Shown here piece after piece: positions 14,383 to 47,863 of a stretch of DNA of 64,000 bases. A program made the position numbers and the translations under genes. Origin of the DNA: Candidatus Poribacteria bacterium (GTDB taxonomy: Bacteria > Poribacteria > WGA-4E > JAJDTR01). Within the stretch, counting starts at the first letter, position 1. The number at the start of each line of letters is the position of its first letter. Under the pieces are notes generated by a model, which ran no database searches, had not been told where the DNA came from, and worked only from the letters and a program-made list of their open reading frames with translations. The DNA is taken from contig OZ242354.1 in assembly GCA_965208765.1 (NCBI GenBank), forward strand, positions 1,383,343 to 1,447,342, read 5' to 3'.

Positions 14383-14534
14383 TTTAATTCACAGCAGGGC
14401 AGAGAACAGACAAGCCACAAATGAAGAGTTAATTTTGGCTATTCATATCATTGAGAATAGCCCATTAATCGTGGAGATCTCGTAGCATAAACTGTATGAA
14501 GGTTAAATATTTAAATCGGTTATTCTAGTTTTCC

Positions 14535-14748
14535 CTAAACTCGGTAGGTGCGGTTTCCTAACCGCGCCGAGCATTGTTAGGATATTACCGAATTATTTTT
14601 TTTAACTTCATTTAGTGGTCTATTCGCTAAGAATTTAATGCTTACGAGACTGGCACAGAAAACTGTTCTACCACGCCGGTAGGTGCGGTTTCTAACCGCA
14701 CCGGCACCCAACTCTAACCATATTGTTTTGGAAAATAAACCATTTAGT
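14535..14748. repeat. 132-bp hairpin repeat family: degenerate half unit plus one full unit
   Basis: Contains ggtaggtgcggtttc(c)taaccgc and the full consensus gtggtctattcgctaagaatttaatgcttacgagactggcac...ccggtaggtgcggtttctaaccgcaccggcaccc...ggaaaataaacc. It matches the tandem array at 46496-47034. Confidence 0.85.
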
Positions 14749-19396: not shown

Positions 19397-19454
19397 GCGG
19401 AGGCTCCGCAAACAACAGGAATGATGGTTTTCTGCGGCAATCTCTATCGCACTC

Positions 19455-19490
19455 CATACGGTAGGTGCGGTTTCCAACCGCACCGAGGTC
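19455..19490. repeat. solo copy of the repeat-family hairpin (ggtaggtgcggtttccaaccgcaccg)
   Basis: Same hairpin as the core of the 132-bp repeat. It sits about 60 nt after the aminotransferase stop. Confidence 0.6.
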
Positions 19491-19599
19491 CGCTCCCACA
19501 GAAATCAGCACCAAGAGTCATCTTCTGTGGCGCACCCATCAATCAATGGGCTGGTATTCCCTCGCCCAAGTCTACATGGAATTTAATTGTTTAAGACAC

Positions 19600-24956: not shown

Positions 24957-25093
24957 TCTTCCGCCCTTCCTTTCCAGCGCGGAAACTCCCGCATTATTCG
25001 AATAATCGATCGCCTACCATGCGGTTACCGAAGCAGGTAGTTGGGCCGATATGAGAATCGTATAACTCAAAGACCCGATAACAACACTATGAC

Positions 25094-25253
25094 ACTAAGT
25101 GGTCTATTCGCTAAGAATTTAGTGCTTCCGAGACTGGCACAAGAAACGGTTATACCGTTCCGGTAGGTGAGGTTTTTAACCGCACCGGCACCCAACAATA
25201 ACCATATTTTTTTGGAAAATAAATCACTAAGTAGCCTATTCGTTAAGAGCATG
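25094..25253. repeat. 132-bp hairpin repeat family: one full unit plus a partial unit abutting the IS left end
   Basis: gtggtctattcgctaagaatttagtgcttccgagactggcac...ccggtaggtgaggtttttaaccgcaccggcaccc...ggaaaataaatcactaagtagcctattcgttaagagcatg. Confidence 0.8.
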
Positions 25254-25263
25254 TTTGAAAAGT

Positions 25264-27092
25264 ACATTTGTAGGGTGCGCACGGCGCACCAGCCTTTAAA
25301 GCCCCAGTGGGGCGGAAGGTGTGTAGAAATACCGAAACCCTGTACGCCAAAGCCCCAGCGGGGCGACAGGTACATAGCGGTAAATTACAAAAACGCGTCT
25401 TCAAATGACTAAAAATGGCTTTGCTACCGAATTTTCAAACAGGTTCTAAGCTCGACTTTGTACAAAACTAGAAGGGGAATAAGGTAAAATTAGTCGAAAA
25501 AGCAACACCATTCGACTAAGGAGGTACACCTTGATTCCCCCATCGCTGATAACATTGTTAACTCCGTTTCAATCATTGTTTCGACGTCCTAGCTGGATTA
25601 AAATCCAAATCTTACTCGTTGGAACAATCCTTTTAACCGGTAGGCGAACAGTAACTCAAGCCCTGAGAGTGACCGGTCGGTCAGCCGACAATCGGTTTGC
25701 TCTGTATCACCACGTGCTTAGCCGTGCGGTTTGGTCCCCTCTGCAAGCCGCCCAAAAACTGTTGTTTACGTTATTGAAGTTCCTCGACGACGGTAAGCAA
25801 CCGTTAGTATTTGGCATTGATGAAACGATTGAGCGCCGCTGGGGAGCCAAAATCAAAGCACGAGGTATCTATCGTGATGCCGTGCGTTCTTCATCAAGCC
25901 ACTTTGTCAAAACCAGCGGATTACGTTGGATAGCGCTGATGTGGCTAACACAGATTCCCTGGGCATCATGTATCTGGGCGCTGCCGTTTTTGACGGCACT
26001 TGCACCCTCCAAACGTTACTATGAGTCTGAAAAACGTTGCCACAAGAAACTCACTGACTGGGCAAGACAAATTGTATTTCAACTTCGCCGGTGGTTGCCC
26101 AATCGTTACTTGGTTGTGGTCGCTGATTATAGTTATGCGGTGTTAGAATTCCTTGCAGCTTGCCAAGAATTGTCAAATCCGGTAACCATTATCACTCGTT
26201 TGCGACTTGATGCAGCACTCTACCAACCTGCTCCACCTTATAGCGGTACAGGACGTCCTTGTAAGAAAGGAGAGCGGTTACCTACCTTGGCTGACATTCT
26301 GCATGACCCAAACACCCAATGGCAGAACCTTGATTGGTATAACGGTCAACAAAGAGAAATGCAAATCATCTCACAGCCAACCGTTTGGTATCACACGGGC
26401 AAACCCCCGGTGTCAATCCGCTGGGTTTTGATACGAGACCCTCTTGGCAGTTATGAACCGATAGCCCTTTTATCAACTGACACAACACTTTGTCCCAACC
26501 AGATAGCCAACTGGTATGTTCGTCGCTGGCGAATGGAAGTCACTTTTGAAGAAGTGCGTGCCCATCTAGGCGTGGAAACACAAAGACAATGGTCGGATAA
26601 AGCGATTGCTCGCACGACTCCAATGCTATTTGGACTGTTCTCTTGGATTACCTTAGCTGCTCATCTACTGGTTCAACAGAATCAAGTAGAAGTGCGACAG
26701 GCTGCATGGTATCAGAAATCGTTAGCCACCTTTTCTGATGCAATAGGGTGGGTGAGACACCATTTTTGGTCTGCAGAAGCGGACATGACTTTTTCACAGG
26801 TCAACCAAAATGACCAGATGGTTAAAATCTCAACCGCTTTTCTCGAACGCTTGATTGACACCGTCTGTTATTCCGCTTAAATGTACAAAGTCGAGCTGAG
26901 AACCTGTTTGAATAATCGGTAGCGAAACCATTTTGGGGCATTTGTAGAAGTTTTTTCACGATTTTATTGTCTCCTGCTACGTACCTGTCGCCCCGCTGGG
27001 GCTTAGGTGCACGGGGTTTTGGCATTTCTATACACCTTCCGCCCCTCTGGGGCTTTTAGAGGCTGGTGCGCAGTGCGCACTCTACAAACGTA
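25264..27092 (+). mobile_element. IS4/IS701-like insertion sequence with about 210-bp terminal inverted repeats
   Basis: The left region (25264 to about 25470) and the reverse complement of the right region (26882 to about 27092) align along their whole length (tacatttgtagggtgcgcacggcgcaccagcc...gctcgactttgtaca). They flank a single DDE transposase ORF. Confidence 0.8.
25531..26880 (+). CDS. DDE transposase, IS4 superfamily (IS701-like)
   Basis: 449 aa. Candidate catalytic D (GIDETIERRWG), D (VVVADYSY) and E within a Y-x2-R-x3-E-x6-(K/R) motif (YVRRWRMEVTFEEVR). Confidence 0.85.
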   Translation: MIPPSLITLLTPFQSLFRRPSWIKIQILLVGTILLTGRRTVTQALRVTGRSADNRFALYHHVLSRAVWSPLQAAQKLLFTLLKFLDDGKQPLVFGIDETIERRWGAKIKARGIYRDAVRSSSSHFVKTSGLRWIALMWLTQIPWASCIWALPFLTALAPSKRYYESEKRCHKKLTDWARQIVFQLRRWLPNRYLVVVADYSYAVLEFLAACQELSNPVTIITRLRLDAALYQPAPPYSGTGRPCKKGERLPTLADILHDPNTQWQNLDWYNGQQREMQIISQPTVWYHTGKPPVSIRWVLIRDPLGSYEPIALLSTDTTLCPNQIANWYVRRWRMEVTFEEVRAHLGVETQRQWSDKAIARTTPMLFGLFSWITLAAHLLVQQNQVEVRQAAWYQKSLATFSDAIGWVRHHFWSAEADMTFSQVNQNDQMVKISTAFLERLIDTVCYSA

Positions 27093-27264
27093 CTATTCAA
27101 ACAGGTTCTAAACATTTACAATGAAAGAAACCTGGATTTCAAGGGAAAAGAGGAGGATTGAGGGAAAATCGAAGTGGGGAATGGATTACCAAAAAAGGAA
27201 TCCTCATTTTTCGAGGGAGGGGACGAACTTGGAGTATTTTAAGCGTCTCTGCGCTCCACAACTG

Positions 27265-29508
27265 TTATAACTCAACGGCTATGCCCAAGTAAGGGATAAT
27301 CGGGAATTGATAGATATCTTCTTTTTCGGTGTAATCGTCGTTGTAGCTGAAGTCGAGTAGGTTCTTGCGGTTATAGGCGTTCAACAGTTCGAGAAAGACG
27401 CGCATCTGCCAATTAGAAAAGCGAAAGGCCTTGCTAATCTTCACGTCCAGCCGATGATAGGCCGGCAAACGTGCTGAATTGGTCTCCGCGTAGATTGGGA
27501 CGTAGATGAATTCGTCGTTGCGCGGGTCGGATTTTAAGTCAGCCCCGAGCACCGGCGTGTAGGGATTGCCGGTCCGGTATTGCCATTTCGTGCCAATTTC
27601 CCAGGTTGGAGTCGGACTGTAGGTCGCCGCAAGCGTCGCCACGTGCGTTTGGTCGAACGAATAGAAGCGGTACGGTTCGCCGGGGCTATCCCGCCGTTTG
27701 GAGAGTCCATAGGCATAAGAACCCCAACCGAGGAATCGCTCCCCGGTTTGATGTCGTAGGAACACCTCGGTGCCCTGCGCGAACCCGACGCCCTGATTGA
27801 GATAATTTGCTTCGTCATCGTTGGTCACCAAGTCGACGAGGTTCTTGTAGTAACCGGCGAGCTTGATCTCGGTCGTCTCAGAGATTTCACGCGTATACTC
27901 CAGTACGTAGTGACTGGCTCGGCTGGTGCTCAACTCCGGGTTGCCGACGCTCCGCGTAAGCCTCGGCGGTGTCGGCACTTGCTGATAGTTGCCGTAGGAA
28001 AACTGGACCTGAGAACCCGGCGAGATTTCAAACAGGAGACTTCCGCGCGGTTGGATGGAGAGTCCGTCAATCTGATTCAAGTAATCCGTTCGCAAGCCGA
28101 GTACGACTGACAAAAATGGCAATACCCTGTATCGGTCTTGCAGATAGATTTCAAGTCGTTTTCCAAGTGAGGATTCGTCGATCGATTGCTTCTCGATAAA
28201 CCGGGGATCGTAATCGACTTCGCCCTCATCAGGCGGACGCAGAAAATTGCCGGTAGCCCTACCCGGTTCGAGTCCGAGTATCAAACCGGATTCAATCTGA
28301 TGTTTCGGCGTCAGCGTGTAGGTGAGGTCCTCGCGAATCACGTACTGCGGCGCATCAACTTTGAGCGATAGATCAGCGCCGATATTGACATCAAACGCGA
28401 AAAAGGAACGGGTCAAGGATAGATAGGAGGTCAAGCGGTCAGTGAGAAGGGAACGGAGGTGAATACCGGCTCCCTCGAAACCGCTGTCAAAGTCTATATT
28501 CCCTCTTAGATCCTCGTCCACATCTTCGCCATCCAGCTTGAGCGCGAAGCTGTCACCGGAGGCAAATAAATTGAGCGAGAGTTGATGCTTTTCAGAGAGG
28601 TTATAACCTCCCTTTATCTGATAATCCCAAAATCGGGGGAAGGCGGTGATTTGTCCGCTATCAAATGACAATGACCTGAGAAACAGGTCGATGTAGCTTC
28701 TTCGTCCGGCTGCATACCAAAATCCCTTGTCGCCAATCTTGCCTTCTAATAGCCCTTCGGAGTAGAGCAAATTGAGGTTGAATTTTGCATCGAAACCGTC
28801 CGTGTTTTTGTTCCTTGAATAGATGTCGATCACGGCCTGGGAGTCGACGCCAAATTCGGCGCCGTAACCGCCGGCGTAGACGTCAATCCGTTCAATGACT
28901 TCGGAACTGAGGGAGGAAACAATTCCGCCGAAATGGTAAGGGTAACCGATCGGCACCCGGTCAAAGTAATAGAGGTTGTCTGTATCGGCGCCGCCGCGGA
29001 TATACAGGGCGCCGCTAAAGTCGTTTGCCACACCGACAGCGGGCAAGGATTGTAGGGCGCGGAGAGCGTCTCCCGCCGTGCCGGGGACGCGCTGAATCTC
29101 TGCGCCGCCCAAACTCTGTCTGCCAACCGACGGCAAAGGACGATCGGTTGTAACCTCTACTTCGTCAAGGGGCACAACAACCGGCTCAAGTAAGATTTCA
29201 ACACGCGTGATTTCCGCCGGCGCTACGGTAGCCGGGGTATCCGTAGAAGGTAGGTATCGTGAAGCGTATGCGGCAAGGGTATAATGCCCGGGTGGCAGGT
29301 TGCGAATCTGAAACTCGCCGTTCGCATCGGTGAGAACGCGCTGACCGGTCTCGACGATGCGCACTTGTGCGGATTCGATGGGCTGTTTAAGATTCTGTTG
29401 AAGGACTGTGCCGTAGATTTCGCCGGATTGGCTTGAAGCCTGCTGTCCATATGCGATACAGGGACATAGGCACAATACGAATAGTATTTTAGTGCAAATC
29501 TGTTTCAC
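27265..29508 (-). CDS. TonB-dependent outer-membrane receptor with N-terminal carboxypeptidase-regulatory-like domain
   Basis: Signal peptide. CarbopepD_reg-like start (GEIYGTVL...ANGEFQIRNLPPGHYTL). Plug domain and a long barrel ending in a C-terminal aromatic residue (…IPYLGIAVEL). Confidence 0.85.
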   Translation of the reverse strand: MKQICTKILFVLCLCPCIAYGQQASSQSGEIYGTVLQQNLKQPIESAQVRIVETGQRVLTDANGEFQIRNLPPGHYTLAAYASRYLPSTDTPATVAPAEITRVEILLEPVVVPLDEVEVTTDRPLPSVGRQSLGGAEIQRVPGTAGDALRALQSLPAVGVANDFSGALYIRGGADTDNLYYFDRVPIGYPYHFGGIVSSLSSEVIERIDVYAGGYGAEFGVDSQAVIDIYSRNKNTDGFDAKFNLNLLYSEGLLEGKIGDKGFWYAAGRRSYIDLFLRSLSFDSGQITAFPRFWDYQIKGGYNLSEKHQLSLNLFASGDSFALKLDGEDVDEDLRGNIDFDSGFEGAGIHLRSLLTDRLTSYLSLTRSFFAFDVNIGADLSLKVDAPQYVIREDLTYTLTPKHQIESGLILGLEPGRATGNFLRPPDEGEVDYDPRFIEKQSIDESSLGKRLEIYLQDRYRVLPFLSVVLGLRTDYLNQIDGLSIQPRGSLLFEISPGSQVQFSYGNYQQVPTPPRLTRSVGNPELSTSRASHYVLEYTREISETTEIKLAGYYKNLVDLVTNDDEANYLNQGVGFAQGTEVFLRHQTGERFLGWGSYAYGLSKRRDSPGEPYRFYSFDQTHVATLAATYSPTPTWEIGTKWQYRTGNPYTPVLGADLKSDPRNDEFIYVPIYAETNSARLPAYHRLDVKISKAFRFSNWQMRVFLELLNAYNRKNLLDFSYNDDYTEKEDIYQFPIIPYLGIAVEL

Positions 29509-29734
29509 GTAGTGCTATTTTCCTCGCGTCCTTTTCAAGTCGACATTAATGACGTCAAATGGTCCGACCGTGTTTACACCTTGACGCCAAAAAAGATGCG
29601 AAAATAGAAGAAGCGTTGCATCGGCTGAAATTCCCTTGGATTTCTCGTATAGGTTTGGGTCAATCAGCAAAAAAGCCATAAGAGGCGCGATTATTGCACC
29701 TCGGCAATAACTCGGTTCTCGACACAAGTCTGTA

Positions 29735-29800
29735 GGGTGCGCACTGCGCACCAGTCTCTAAAAGCTCAGCTTTGGCGGAAGGTGTGTAGTAACACCTGAA
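29735..29800. repeat. solo fragment of the IS terminal inverted repeat outer end
   Basis: gtctgtagggtgcgcactgcgcaccagtctctaaaagc...ggcggaaggtgtgtag matches the outer about 70 bp of the IS terminal repeat. Confidence 0.6.
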
Positions 29801-29982
29801 TTTCGCCTACCTAAGCCATGACGGGATCAGGCCAGTCTATAGCGAGCGCGATAGCTGTCCGACAGGCATTTTGACGCGTAGCTACACCACGATGAAAAAG
29901 CTTGTCTTCAAAGGACTGAAAATTGCTTTGCTGCAACTAATAATACAGGATCTGACGATCGGTATAAAAAATTTCCTCCACT

Positions 29983-30605
29983 GTACATCTGTAGGGTGGG
30001 CACTGCCCACCATTTCCTTTACGGTGCGATCAATCGACTGGATAAGGGTCAACCGAGCGGACAATGAGGGCGGCAGAAAATACCGTGCGATTGAGCACCT
30101 ACCAGCCTTTGAAAGCAACAACGGCGCGACAGGTGCATAGCACCGGGGAGTTTACCACATTCAAACCTAAGTTGGTGGATAAATGCCCCATCCTCGGATG
30201 TTATGTCGCTCAAATTATAAGCTCGACTTTGTACATTTGAGCAGTATAACAGACGGTGTCAATCAAGCGCTGGAGAAAAACGGGTGAGATTTTACCCATC
30301 TGGTCTTATGGGTTGACGTGTGAAAAAGTCTTCGCTATAGACTAGAACTGGTGTTTCACGCAACCCGATGCATCGGGGCAAATCGCTGGCGATTTCTAAA
30401 AGCCTCTAACCTTTAGATCTCTATCGTCTTCGCTATTTGCTCAGTTGATCCCACGCCGGGGCTTTGGTTTAGTGTGGCTTGGCTTGCTATACACCTTTCG
30501 CGCCGCTGGCGCTCTCAAAGGCTGGAAGATCTCCATCGCGCTCATTATTCATTCACTTGATTGCAGTACGCACCTTACAAGAAATGGTGGGCAGTGCCCA
30601 CCCTA
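29983..30605 (-). mobile_element. internally deleted (non-autonomous) copy of the IS at 25264-27092, in reverse orientation
   Basis: A full terminal repeat (29983 to about 30245) is followed by the last about 60 nt of the transposase gene in reverse complement (encoding ...QRLIDTVCYTAQ). About 200 bp of unrelated sequence follows, then a terminal repeat outer end in the opposite orientation (30455-30605). Confidence 0.6.
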
Positions 30606-30622
30606 CAAATGTACAAAGTCGA

Positions 30623-30745
30623 GCTAAGAATTTAATGCTTACGAGACTGGCATAAGAAACGGTTCTACCACGCCGGTAGGTGCGGTTTCTAACCGCACCG
30701 GCACCCAACAATAACCATATTTTTTTGGAAAATAAACCACTAAGT
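30623..30745. repeat. 132-bp hairpin repeat family copy directly abutting the IS-derived terminal repeat
   Basis: gctaagaatttaatgcttacgagactggcataagaaacggttctaccacgccggtaggtgcggtttctaaccgcaccggcacccaacaataacc...ggaaaataaaccactaagt. Confidence 0.85.
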
Positions 30746-32953: not shown

Positions 32954-33405
32954 ATGAGAAGATTTCACCCGCACCTGTTCATCAGTTGTTTGTTAGTCAC
33001 TAGCTGTGCGACCTTGCTCTCGGAACAGCAATATATCCAAGTTGATGAGAAAGTCACAGAAACCGTTCTACCACGCCGGTAGGTGCGGTTTCTAACCGCA
33101 CCGGCACCCAACATAACCATATTTTCTTGGAAAATAAACCACTAATGTACTCAATTCCCGAGAAAAGAGAAATCCGGAGAATCATTATTTTGGGCGAAGG
33201 AACAGTGACTAATGTTGATATTTATGCTCGCAACTCGGAGAATAATTGGAAGCGAATTAAGAAAATCAAGAAGACTGTAGGATTTCCGATTGAAATTAAT
33301 GTAGTTCTAAAGGCCGACGCTGTTCGGATTAACCAGAAAAGAATACGAGGCAGGGGCAGCATCAATTCGGTCCGATTTTTCGCGCTTTCGAAAGAACAGC
33401 AGTAG
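32954..33405 (+). pseudogene. lipoprotein-family gene (paralog of 5960-6373) interrupted by insertion of a repeat-family copy
   Basis: The N-terminal fragment (MRRFHPHLFISCLLVTSCATLL...QVDEKVTE) and the out-of-frame C-terminal fragment (YSIPEKREIRRIIILGEG...INVVLKADAVRI) are both homologous to the 5960-6373 product. They are separated by a repeat copy of about 91 bp (33055-33146). Confidence 0.55.
33055..33146. repeat. 132-bp hairpin repeat family: hairpin-containing half unit inserted into a coding sequence
   Basis: cacagaaaccgttctaccacgccggtaggtgcggtttctaaccgcaccggcacccaacataaccatattttcttggaaaataaaccactaa. Confidence 0.8.
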
Positions 33406-45871: not shown

Positions 45872-46495
45872 ACAACACCGGATTCCTCAAACCCTGTAGG
45901 AGCGAGCAAGCGAACGGCCAGTGAGTGCAATGGAGTTTCGCTCCTGGTCGCGACCAAACCAATCCTCGATCGCCAACTACGCGATTTCCGCTTCCCTTCT
46001 AGTCATTGTTCCGCTCTCCAATCGTCCGCGTACAACCGATCCCTGCACCAAGTCGCCACAGCCCACTGCTTTTAGCCCTACTGTGCGATATTGTCGGCAT
46101 CTGATCAAAGATTCGTTTTGTCCCAATACTGAGGGTATCGAGATCGGGGTATCAGACACGGGATTTGCACCTCGAAAAACCTTACCTGAACATATCCAAA
46201 TTTCTTTTGGTGCCAGGTGCAAATTTCAGATGCTGTTTCCGCGGGCGACATCCGAGAAATGGTTGCCAAAATGCGGCGGCAATGTTAACATTCTACCGGA
46301 AAAAGTCGCGGTCTATGCCGCGAGCCGCATCAACTGGAGGACAGCGCGGAGATGCAGTTAGCCTTTATTGAGGGGGATTGTGAGAATTACACCAATTCTC
46401 ATGCATCGAATGCCGGAAAGTTGTCCGAGGCCTCTTTTCAGGAGTATGAAGCGGTTTCGGATGATGATATTGACGCACTCATTGATGAGATGAAG

Positions 46496-47034
46496 CCACT
46501 AAGTGGTTCATTCGCTAAGAATTTAATGCTTACGAGACTGGCACAAAAAACTGTTCTACCACGCCGGTAGGTGCGGTTTCTAACCGCACCGGCTCCCAAC
46601 ACTAACCATATTTTTTTGGAAAATAAACCACTTAGTGGTCTATTCTCTAAGTATTTAATGCTTACGAGACTGGCACGAGAAACCGTTCTACCACGCCGGT
46701 AGGTGCGGTTTCTAACCGCACCGGCTCCCAACACTAACCATATTTTTTTAGAAAATAAACCACTAAGTGGTCTATTCGCTAAGAATTTAATGCTTACGAG
46801 ACTGGCACAAAAAACTGTTCTACCACGCCGGTAGGTGCGGTTTCTAACCGCACCGGCTCCCAACACTAACCATATTTTTTTGGAAAATAAACCACTAAGT
46901 GGTCTATTCGCTAAGAATTTAACGCTTGCGAGACTGGCACAAGAAACTGTTCTACCACGCCGGTAGGTGCGGTTTCTAACCGCACCGGCTCCCAACACTA
47001 ACCATATTTTTTTGGAAAATAAACCACTAAGTGA
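46496..47034. repeat. tandem array of 4.1 units of the 132-bp hairpin repeat
   Basis: Unit starts at 46496, 46628, 46760, 46892 and 47024, an exact 132-bp period. The units are over 90% identical and each contains the hairpin ccgg-ta-ggtgcggtt-tct-aaccgcacc-gg. Confidence 0.9.
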
Positions 47035-47059
47035 AAAATAATGAGGGTAGGAGATAGTA

Positions 47060-47404
47060 ATGGAAGAATGGATTAAGTTTATCGCCCTACTGGTCGGGAT
47101 TGTGGGGTTGTGGTGGAAGCTCACCACCTCGATGGCGACCAAAGCGGAAGTAACGGCAGTAAAGACCGAACTCAGGGTTGAAATAGCTGAGGTTAAGGCG
47201 GACCTCAAAGAAGATATAGCCGAGGTAAAATCCGACATGGCAGCCATGAAAGGGGAGCTAAAATCTGAAATTGCCGAGTTGAAATCCGACATGGCGGGCA
47301 TGAAGGCAGATATCAAAGCGGAGAATGCAGAGCTAAGGGCGGACATCAGGGAGATTCGGCAACTGCTATACAAAAACGTTGTCGAGACCGAGAAGCATGA
47401 ATAA
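47060..47404 (+). CDS. small membrane-anchored protein with 11-residue amphipathic (apolipoprotein/LEA-like) repeats
   Basis: N-terminal transmembrane helix (FIALLVGIVGLWW), then 11-mer repeats EIAEVKADLKE/DIAEVKSDMAA/MKGELKSEIAE/LKSDMAGMKAD/IKAENAELRAD. A GGAG ribosome-binding site lies 7 nt upstream. Confidence 0.5.
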   Translation: MEEWIKFIALLVGIVGLWWKLTTSMATKAEVTAVKTELRVEIAEVKADLKEDIAEVKSDMAAMKGELKSEIAELKSDMAGMKADIKAENAELRADIREIRQLLYKNVVETEKHE

Positions 47405-47863
47405 TCGAGATGCGGTGTCGCGCGACGGTAACAGGTATTCGCAAATTGATGTTTTGCGGAACCCTCTCCGTCTATCTGCAAGAGAATCTCTTGAAAACGA
47501 CAGTGAATAAGGTATAGTCATGATAGATTTATTTCTACTATGGCGGTGGATGAAAAAAGAACGCGACGGTGAGACTCGATTGGCAAAACAAAGGGGTAGA
47601 ATAGAAGGGGCAAATGCGAGGGATAAAGTATGGATTTCGTGGTACGAGCGCAAGATGCAAGCGGAGCAGAATGGTGTTGAGTTTGATGAACCTCCGCCTC
47701 ATTTAGTGCCGCGCAAGCGTGCTAAAATAGTTAGGAGGTAAAGAGAGATTGTGACGCCGACAATGCGAAGCGAATTGGTAGGTATTGGGAGACTGGGCAG
47801 GGGATTTCTATCGCACTCCCTGATCGGTCGTTTGATTGCTCCCACTGCCCATATCCGCCGAGA

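Follow-up and report, generated by a model that had tools for sequence, protein, structure and literature searches.

A 127-bp MITE-like element with a GTAG-type REP hairpin and pentamer-sharing tandem stacks in Candidatus Poribacteria

Bacterial MITEs have been described under several names, among them Nezha in cyanobacteria, NEMIS/Correia in Neisseria and RUP in Streptococcus (PMC3733652). The repeat family characterised here, termed family A, resembles these elements (PMC3733652) in its size class (70–300 bp), its imperfect TIRs, the lack of coding capacity and the duplication of its target, as well as in inserting beside or into genes and in folding into a long hairpin. It differs from them in that its sequence is unrelated and displays no Rfam match, in its host phylum, which is new, and in combining a central REP and a strict YTWAR pentamer with head-to-tail stacks of elements that share one duplication.

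A second group of related systems are the GTAG REPs, which are defined by a GTAG tetranucleotide at the base of a 20–40-bp palindrome, whether perfect or not (PMC3733652), and the REPtrons formed with RAYT genes (Nunvar 2010; Bertels & Rainey 2011; Di Nocera 2013). The hairpin within family A shares with these the GTAG 5′ of a 9-bp GC-rich palindrome, the presence of many copies, the inverted flanking of RAYT genes and a palindrome that differs by RAYT clade. On the other hand, the Poribacterial 26-mer is identical in at least 32 assemblies, and most Poribacterial copies lie inside larger recurrent families instead of having unique flanks. The 2013 survey of REPs (Di Nocera 2013; PMC3733652) makes no mention of Poribacteria. 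The GTAG-15 REP dimers of Anabaena variabilis (PMC3733652) are similar to the present case in that REPs are embedded centrally in longer inverted-repeat elements; REP-less host palindromes were not found there, whereas the present material includes a REP-less element with family-A ends (L097), and one and the same REP recurs in at least six distinct host families. BIMEs of E. coli, finally, are comparable as REP mosaics with alternating orientation, conserved linker motifs and tandem reiteration, but they lack TIRs and target duplications, and their REP sequence differs.

The window analysed here is a stretch of 64,000 nucleotides (64 kb) of Candidatus Poribacteria DNA, which was studied together with a set of comparison loci (designated by L-numbers such as L032 or L125). 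A first-pass annotation had drawn attention to a 132-bp repeat unit in this window, after which family A is defined. The period of 132 bp is correct, yet the element proper comprises 127 bp, to which a duplicated 5-bp pentamer has to be added. We put the probability at roughly 0.8 that the repeat is a 127-bp MITE with a 5-bp target duplication, that it forms stacks by re-insertion into its pentamer, and that it carries the REP as a passenger.

Alignment of copies from the window and from other assemblies displays a family-A body of 127 bp with imperfect TIRs (TGGTCTATTC…/…AATAAACCA). The ends TGGTCTATT.../...AATAAACCA extend imperfectly to about 25 nt, and the TIR arms pair in the predicted fold. 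The target-site duplication measures 5 bp and follows the consensus YTWAR, mostly as CTAAG or TTTAG. Inspection of the flanks, which had been proposed for the single copies in the first-pass annotation, found perfect 5-bp direct repeats at 9 of 11 independent full-length copies (window and other Poribacteria assemblies), with five different pentamers among them (TTTAG and CTAAG three times each, CTTAG, CTTAA and CTAAA). Since the pentamers match within a copy and vary between copies, they represent the duplicated target and lie outside the element. An element with family-A ends and a CTAAA duplication, but with a different interior devoid of the REP, is present in L097 (224 bp in total); hence it is the ends that make up the mobile unit, with the REP carried along as a passenger. 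The earlier term "REP-like" is thus appropriate for the hairpin, a GTAG REP tied to RAYT genes, but not for the unit as a whole.

Full-length family-A copies, including tandem copies, occur in several other Poribacteria assemblies at 77–93% identity. The element has no coding capacity, as the ORFs that cross the 127 bp display no family match and no conserved position. In TIRs, in a target duplication of fixed length and variable sequence, in presence/absence polymorphism between related genomes and in being small and non-coding, family A shows the traits by which MITEs are recognised. The proposal of a miniature mobile element that also amplifies in tandem is borne out by these TIRs and 5-bp duplications together with the empty sites in related genomes described below. 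The family-A MITE is specific to Candidatus Poribacteria; two scans of JGI metagenomes with family-A patterns gave 0 matches. A search for an autonomous element with family-A ends (left and right ends 0.4–3.5 kb apart, and tblastn with an IS701-family transposase) found none in the window or in about 1 Mb of Poribacteria DNA. All family-A copies of the window lie on one strand, which with four independent events only corresponds to a two-sided p of about 1/8.

The element was folded, as had been suggested, and its fold is more stable than those of shuffled sequences on both strands (z = −3.9 for the RNA of the plus strand, z = −2.8 for the minus strand). This stability, together with a weak sigma-70-like match across the last element of the array and its flank, may be taken to suggest tandem genes of a small structured RNA or a cis-regulatory RNA. 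We consider this very unlikely: the stability is explained by the pairing of the TIRs plus the REP, an intrinsic terminator after the hairpin is lacking (a T-run follows 20 nt downstream), and the copies carry target duplications, are inserted into a gene and into each other and are absent at orthologous sites. A match to a known Rfam family had been named as an observation that would speak against a new element. No match was obtained in the whole window at gathering thresholds, and with E up to 1 the array and the 19.4-kb hairpin region yielded only a chance match of 13.6 bits (E 0.81). A tRNA/tmRNA scan found none. A sigma-54 promoter had also been considered for the motif CTGGCAC-N and was ruled out by eye, as the −12 GC element is missing. 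The positions of all elements and of neighbouring features are listed in Table 1.

Table 1. Coordinates in the window of family-A elements, REP hairpins, other mobile elements and one neighbouring gene.
Feature	Position	Strand	Remarks
Family-C MITE	14496..14611	+	adjoins the family-A copy; TIR ATGAAGGTTAAAT.../...TTTAACTTCAT; variant REP hairpin
Single full-length family-A element	14616-14742; with flanks 14611..14747	+	TTTAG/TTTAG duplication
REP hairpin only, family-F context	19459..19485	+	flanks recur in L004, L037, L096, L097, L115, L116
Family-A unit 1	25100-25226 (within 25095..25247)	+	CTAAG on both sides
Family-A unit 2, first 11 nt	25232-25242	+	up to the unit-2 internal pentamer TTAAG, 25243-25247
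Nested insertion splitting unit 2	25248..30623	.	5.4 kb
H1 MITE	25248-25445		then CTAAG
IS701-family IS, 1445 bp	25451-26895		flanks CTAAG/CTGAG; between two inverted H1 copies
Inverted H1	26901-27107		then CTAAA
TonB-dependent-receptor-like gene	27265-29508	-	
402-bp IS-derived MITE	30222-30623		derivative of the resident IS701-family IS
Family-A unit 2, 3′ part	30624..30744	+	internal CTAAG 30624-30628; element end 30739; outer CTAAG 30740-30744
Partial family-A copy, REP and right arm	33073..33146	+	ends ...AAACCA at 33141, then CTAAT
Array of four 127-bp family-A elements	46499..47031	+	period 132 = 127 + 5
Array unit E1	46504-46630	+	
Array unit E2	46636-46762	+	
Array unit E3	46768-46894	+	
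Array unit E4	46900-47026	+	
Reference REP within an array unit	46828..46856	+	GTAG, 9-bp stem GGTGCGGTT, loop TCT, AACCGCACC

Searching the 64-kb window for the 29-nt hairpin core CCGGTAGGTGCGGTTTCTAACCGCACCGG with up to 3 mismatches returned nine matches, all on the plus strand (14676, 19458, 25160, 30673, 33076, 46564, 46696, 46828 and 46960), while none of 100 shuffled sequences contained a match (0 expected). With the complete unit as query, blastn located dispersed copies at 14614-14748, 25093-25248, 30623-30745 and 33060-33145 (90–96% identity) and hairpin-only matches at 14542 and 19459. The first-pass annotation had counted nine copies, each with a perfect stem and with ccgg on both sides. 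Nine hairpin cores do exist; they correspond to four independent family-A insertion loci plus two REPs that belong to other families. The stem is imperfect at 25160, where it reads GGTGAGGTT with the loop TTT, and at 14542, where the copy reads ...AACCGCGCC, and 14542 and 19458 have no CCGG flanks, so that neither generalisation holds. Of the stretch 14535-14748, formerly regarded as one copy, only the second part is family A, while 14535-14613 belongs to family C and has the hairpin alone in common with it; the related empty site in L033 reads AACTTCATTTAGTTTGCGCA, with one TTTAG. Likewise, the hairpin-only copy reported at 19455-19490 is indeed a REP hairpin, but its context is that of family F and not of family A.

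L125 is a locus syntenic with the window (91–95% identical), which was reached through the contigs of homologs of a 129-aa protein discussed below. The whole range 25092-30743 of the window is absent from L125, which has one CTGGG at this point and reads …ACTGTGGC-CTGGG-TCGCCAAAGG…, where the window reads …ATGACA-CTAAG-[…]-CTAAG-TCGCCAAATG…. Because L125 lacks the complete range and has a single pentamer, the copies at 25093 and 30623 mark the opposite ends of a single locus. This locus is a tandem dimer of family A, the second unit of which has been split at its own internal CTAAG by a nested insertion of 5.4 kb. The annotated copies 25094-25253 and 30623-30745 therefore consist of family-A sequence as supposed, but represent two halves of one insertion locus.

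The copy at 33.1 kb lies inside the gene of the 129-aa lipoprotein-like protein, where it replaces about 15 nt of native sequence. The gene is uninterrupted at this site in L125, in L126 and in eight protein homologs, and intact homologs read ...DEKVTETFLPSGLMYSIPEK.... L125 reads ACAGAAACTTTTCTTCCCTCAGGACTAATG at the site and L126 differs at four positions, while the window reads ACAGAAACCGTTCTACCACGCC-REP-right arm-ACCA-CTAATG. The left junction falls into a near-repeat, CACAGAAAC in the gene and CACAAGAAAC in the element, and the first ~20 nt of the copy formerly placed at 33055-33146 are native gene and not element; the remainder is family-A REP and right arm, in a deletion derivative and not a truncated insertion. 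As read from the sequence, the simplest history would be that the element first inserted normally at CTAAT and that microhomology between the near-repeats CACAGAAAC and CACAAGAAAC then led to a deletion. The lipoprotein-like gene is now disrupted. It had been considered that seemingly 5′-truncated copies could point to rolling-circle or retro-type insertion; this was rejected, as one of them is the split unit and the other the deletion derivative.

The nested insertion at 25–30 kb contains a resident insertion sequence, the transposase of which matches Pfam DDE_5 and the IS701 family of NCBIfam (NF049999, 325 bits). Its length of 1445 bp falls into the family range of 1400–1550 bp, and it inserts at a CTAAG-type pentamer, as family A does; published IS701 elements make 4-bp duplications and related families duplications of about 5 bp, compared with 5 bp here (De Palmenaer 2008; PMC2266710). 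The TIRs of the IS (CTCGACTTTGTACA) are unrelated to those of family A, and the target pentamer alone is common to both. A label of family A as an IS701-derived MITE was rejected for these unrelated ends, the true derivative of the resident IS being the 402-bp MITE. The resident IS is thus at most a conceivable mobiliser of family A. The pentamer target of family A also serves this IS and two further MITEs of the window. The elements at this locus follow each other in the order A-CTAAG-A'-TTAAG-H1-CTAAG-IS-CTGAG-H1'-CTAAA, and each pair of neighbours shares one pentamer. Since different elements are stacked with shared pentamers, unequal crossing-over cannot yield such an order, and the mixed stacks support re-insertion into the duplicated target.

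At 46.5 kb, TRF reports an array at 46496-47033 with a period of 132, 4.1 copies, 95% matches, 0% indels and a score of 992, in agreement with the exact tandem period noted earlier from 46496 onward. The layout is CTAAG-E1-CTTAG-E2-CTAAG-E3-CTAAG-E4-CTAAG, i.e. five pentamers separate and flank the units. As 127 and 5 add up to 132, the array consists of four elements with one pentamer common to each pair of neighbours. A derived T (GGCTCCCAAC; GGCTCCC) is found in all four units and is absent from the dispersed copies, which argues that the units were generated locally. The insertion point lies three codons ahead of the stop codon of the ORF starting at 46352, the end of which would have read ...KPLSEK* before insertion. 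In the collinear relative L128, another MITE of 197 bp (H1) occupies exactly the orthologous pentamer, flanked by CTAAG on both sides. Taking out the array from the window, or H1 from L128, restores …IDEMKPLSEK*, an end that lies 17 nt ahead of the following gene's RBS and ATG.

Two routes are conceivable for the growth of this array, namely local re-insertion into the adjacent pentamer and unequal exchange; the sharing of the derived T and of the orientation fits both equally and cannot separate them. Growth of the array solely through unequal homologous exchange or replication slippage following one insertion, with no re-insertion at all, is compatible with the GGCTCCC variant and the common orientation of the four units, and the flanking 5-bp direct repeats could have seed​ed a first duplication. 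We regard this restricted version as possible but doubtful, because different elements in the same genome share single pentamers, which exchange does not explain, and because another MITE independently entered this pentamer in L128, which indicates a preferred target. Exchange and re-insertion are not exclusive.

Repeats are the places where assemblies fail, and a chimeric contig or a mis-resolved repeat has to be considered for any such array. In the present case an artefact is very unlikely: several defined positions distinguish the units from each other, the junctions are exact transitions from element to pentamer to element, the flanks are collinear with L128, and the family including its tandem copies is present in independent assemblies. 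The number 132 is divisible by 3, one minus-strand frame through the array is fully open (a 347-aa ORF on the minus strand, 46438-47481, spans it), and in the +0 frame each unit contains just one TAG. A protein-coding repeat in either of these frames is hardly credible as an explanation of the array, given that the 347-aa ORF matches nothing meaningful in Pfam and lies antisense across a real coiled-coil gene, and that the unit is intergenic elsewhere, disrupts the conserved gene at 33.1 kb and is absent at orthologous loci. Recoding of the in-frame TAG by the hairpin (PYLIS- or SECIS-like) was likewise rejected, the copies being insertions that are absent from the orthologous genes.

The hairpin within family A is composed of GTAG directly 5′ of a perfect 9-bp palindrome (GGTGCGGTT/AACCGCACC), and the full motif G-GTAG-GTGCGGTT-TCT-AACCGCAC-C has the tag at the foot of a palindrome of 20–40 bp, as in the definition of GTAG REPs. 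A degenerate inverted half-REP (GGCACAAAAAACTGTTCTACC) lies just upstream of the reference REP, and the GTAG ends of both face each other across CTACCACGCCGGTAG. An exact scan with the 26-mer GGTAGGTGCGGTTTCYAACCGCACCG, in one genome per species, returned at least 117 stretches in at least 32 assemblies, and all matches listed are from Candidatus Poribacteria MAGs. Those homologs of window proteins for which a name is given are Poribacterial as well. Among the matches listed, copy number is high and mostly extragenic (12 of 136 occurrences lie inside long ORFs), and no bias in orientation relative to flanking genes or local GC skew was found in these 136 occurrences. By their flanks, the 26-mers sort into several recurrent families that are unrelated to each other, A to F, so that at least six unrelated repeat families carry the REP. 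Family B is a TIR element of roughly 100 bp (TATGGTGAATTCTAAAAATAAATAGACAC…GTGTCTCATTAATTCTAAGATCCACTATA), family C has the ends ATGAAGTTTAAT…ATTAAACTTCAT, and families D, E and F are also recognised. Singleton flanks amount to between 26 (right) and 48 (left) of the 122 occurrences with usable flanks among the matches listed; the hairpin is thus a module common to many composite repeats.

A tblastn search of the comparison loci with E. coli RayT identified two ORFs of 157 aa, in L032 and L053, which both match Pfam Y1_Tnp. With the RAYT profile NF047646 of NCBIfam (cutoff 80), the proteins of L032 and L123 score 121 and 106 bits, respectively, and both remain under the IS200 cutoff. The hairpin is located 40–66 bp upstream of RAYT genes and inverted downstream of them (L032, L120, L123 and L119). 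In L032 an exact hairpin lies 40 bp upstream of the RAYT ATG and REP doublets are reiterated downstream, and in L053 a cluster of hairpin variants lies upstream of the RAYT gene. Further RAYT homologs were fetched independently of the hairpin in order to guard against ascertainment bias. Three homologs with 70–84% identity to the L032 protein all have the hairpin upstream (3 of 3); in L123 it is also found inverted 49 bp downstream, and in L119 hairpin clusters lie on both sides. Three RAYTs with 52–54% identity, in turn, lack this hairpin, and each has another tagged palindrome on its flanks (with the tag GTAG in L121 and L124, and GTTG in L122). RAYT genes of one group are therefore accompanied by their own REP (L032, L053, L119, L120 and L123), as opposed to other REPs in L121, L122 and L124. 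Judged by sequence, this arrangement corresponds to the classical REPtron pattern, with the hairpin as a putative REP of the GTAG type.

The link to RAYT genes raises the question whether the whole unit might be of REPIN/BIME type, such that a RAYT would copy the REP doublet and its arms via single-stranded DNA and the array would be a reiterated REP cluster. The degenerate second half-REP in inverted orientation would fit this idea, as would the location of all window copies on one strand. Tandem-reiterated REP clusters with flanking DNA have been described (PMC3733652), and reiterated REP clusters adjoin the Poribacterial RAYT genes in L032, L119 and L124. In all, we nevertheless consider such an origin of the unit quite unlikely. 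Transposition of the Y1/HUH type is not known to make a target duplication, while the two pentamers flanking a family-A copy vary together and only one pentamer is present at orthologous empty sites; such an origin is contradicted by the duplications and TIRs, and also by the REP-less variant in L097, which has family-A ends and a duplication of its own. Moreover, the phase of the array coincides exactly with the element ends, the orientation of the REP is unbiased relative to genes and GC skew (136 cases among the matches listed), and the unit has only one intact REP next to a degenerate one, in copies with TIRs and 5-bp duplications, which is not the organisation of a REPIN.

Based on this dataset, we favour the MITE reading and propose the following scenario. 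A putative DDE-type transposase with this pentamer specificity, supplied in trans, would recognise the imperfect TIRs (TGGTCTATTCGCTAAG…/…GGAAAATAAACCA) and insert the element at YTWAR pentamers, mostly CTAAG or TTTAG, each of which would be duplicated. Every insertion would leave an intact target on both sides of the element, and later insertions could enter these flanking pentamers, resulting in head-to-tail stacks with a single pentamer between neighbours. We read the array at 46.5 kb as such a stack. Its units are the closest relatives of each other and thus of local origin, whether through unequal exchange or through hops into the pentamer next to them. The hairpin forms a separate and older layer, the Poribacterial GTAG REP that flanks one clade of RAYT genes, and in family A it is a passenger, which may have been present in the founder MITE or may have been inserted into it.

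A search of titles and abstracts on Poribacteria in combination with MITEs or palindromic repeats yielded only CRISPR or unrelated mentions. To the extent of these titles and abstracts and of Rfam, the statement of the first-pass annotation that this is not a described family is upheld. What is new is the host phylum, together with the specific sequences and a clear case of stacks that share pentamers; the kinds of repeats themselves are known, and the element as such is ordinary.

One RAYT-type REP occupies the centre of at least six unrelated repeat families with TIRs across the phylum. We may speculate about a two-tier hitchhiking system composed of REPs and MITEs, in one of two versions, though in either version we hold this to be rather unlikely at present. 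In the first, REPs would prefer the single-stranded or cruciform centres of MITEs and would then be spread by DDE transposases, which would provide a second route of dispersal for the vertically inherited RAYT/REP system. In the second, MITEs that bear a REP would be favoured since RAYT or a host factor acts on them. If such a system exists, insertion that regenerates its pentamer would organise the intergenic mosaics of Poribacteria in general.

This is a first description of small mobile DNA in Candidatus Poribacteria, an uncultivated phylum of sponge symbionts, and it covers a GTAG-REP/RAYT system, several clade-specific types of REP, several MITE families and a target-regenerating pentamer specificity, because of which head-to-tail stacks arise. 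The elements are expected to confuse short-read assembly and binning. They mark recent structural differences among close symbionts, namely an insertion complex of 5.6 kb, the disruption of a lipoprotein gene and a change at the end of another gene, and may possibly serve as strain markers.

A segment of 5.65 kb in the window is missing from a syntenic genome of 91-95% identity (L125 783-790). It includes a TonB-dependent-receptor-like gene, flanked by an insertion sequence (IS) of the IS701 family and a derivative MITE of that IS, a layout which resembles a composite transposon or an IS-mediated acquisition. The transposase ORF of the complete IS is assigned to the IS701 family (NF049999, 325 bits), and the insertion point of the element falls exactly between two copies, in inverted orientation, of another MITE, termed H1. 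The non-autonomous derivative displays TIRs identical to those of the IS, its left end corresponding to the inverted right end of the IS, and its insertion site is the internal pentamer of a unit of family A, the 127-bp MITE with pentamer target duplication. A partial copy of family A elsewhere in the window brings a premature TAG into a lipoprotein-like gene that is conserved in Poribacteria, and this gene is disrupted in the window genome.

Positions of the mobile elements and associated features.
Feature	Position	Length	Details
Context of REP 19459	window 19421-19570	~150 nt	
Segment missing from L125	window 25092-30743	5.65 kb	
H1 copy	window 25248-25445	about 200 bp	
Complete IS	window 25451-26895	1445 bp	TIR CTCGACTTTGTACA; flanks CTAAG/CTGAG
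Transposase ORF of the IS	window 25531-26880		
H1 copy	window 26901-27107	about 200 bp	inverted
TonB-dependent-receptor-like gene	window 27265-29508		minus strand
Non-autonomous IS derivative	window 30222-30623	402 bp	flanks ATAAG/CTAAG
Lipoprotein-like gene	window 32954-33405	129 aa	signal peptide, lipobox-like LVTSC
lnt-katG interval	window 45905-47857		
Sigma-70-like match	window 47013-47042		TGGAAA, 18-nt spacer, AATAAT
H1 copy	L128 6644-6840	about 200 bp	

H1 is bounded by the TIR AGCMTGTTTGAA…TTCAAACAGGYT, shows 5-bp target duplications of the CTAAG type, and contains a second type of GTAG-tagged REP hairpin (GTAGGGTGCGCACNGCGCAC). The pentamer associated with the family-A array in the window is the one taken by H1 in the collinear relative L128. 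The lnt-katG interval, compared with the loci L127 and L129, differs among close relatives: lnt and katG are adjacent in L129, six unrelated small ORFs lie between them in L127, and both the window and L128 carry a coiled-coil gene and two small ORFs. Where the final array element meets flanking DNA, its right arm and that DNA together form a sigma-70-like sequence; the gene at 47060 follows 18 nt downstream, and the sequence, a consensus match only, is a possible hybrid outward promoter.

The surroundings of the REP at 19459 recur in six loci of other Poribacteria (L004, L037, L096, L097, L115, L116) and are present twice on one contig. They hold more conserved stems (CCACAGAA…TTCTGTGG and CCCAT…ATGGG), nothing in Rfam matches them, and they may represent either a further repeat family or a structured RNA. 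A short module with GCGATAGAGATCCC is inserted in the REP loop of two family-A copies of other genomes (L045, minus strand, and L054) and occurs three times in the window (5660, 19739, 47801) against 0.03 expected. This data suggests an additional tier of very small nested repeats.

Downstream of the REP-associated tyrosine transposase (RAYT) gene of L032, a unit of ~122 bp, containing the final ~30 nt of the RAYT ORF and a REP doublet, is found in about four tandem copies (L032 5686-6090). At L119 1711-2829, a TnpB-like gene (OrfB_IS605 / Cas12f1-like_TNB) lies directly upstream of the RAYT gene and separates it from its upstream REP cluster.

The RAYT genes of L121, L122 and L124 belong to a more distant clade, with 52-54% identity to the RAYT of L032, and each is flanked by its own palindrome arrays (GTAGGCGGGGCATCTTGCCCCGCTC, GTTGGAGGGGTTTTCAACCCCGAT and GTAGGAGCGAGTTGTGCTCGCGAT). 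Hence, Poribacteria host several REP/RAYT pairs.
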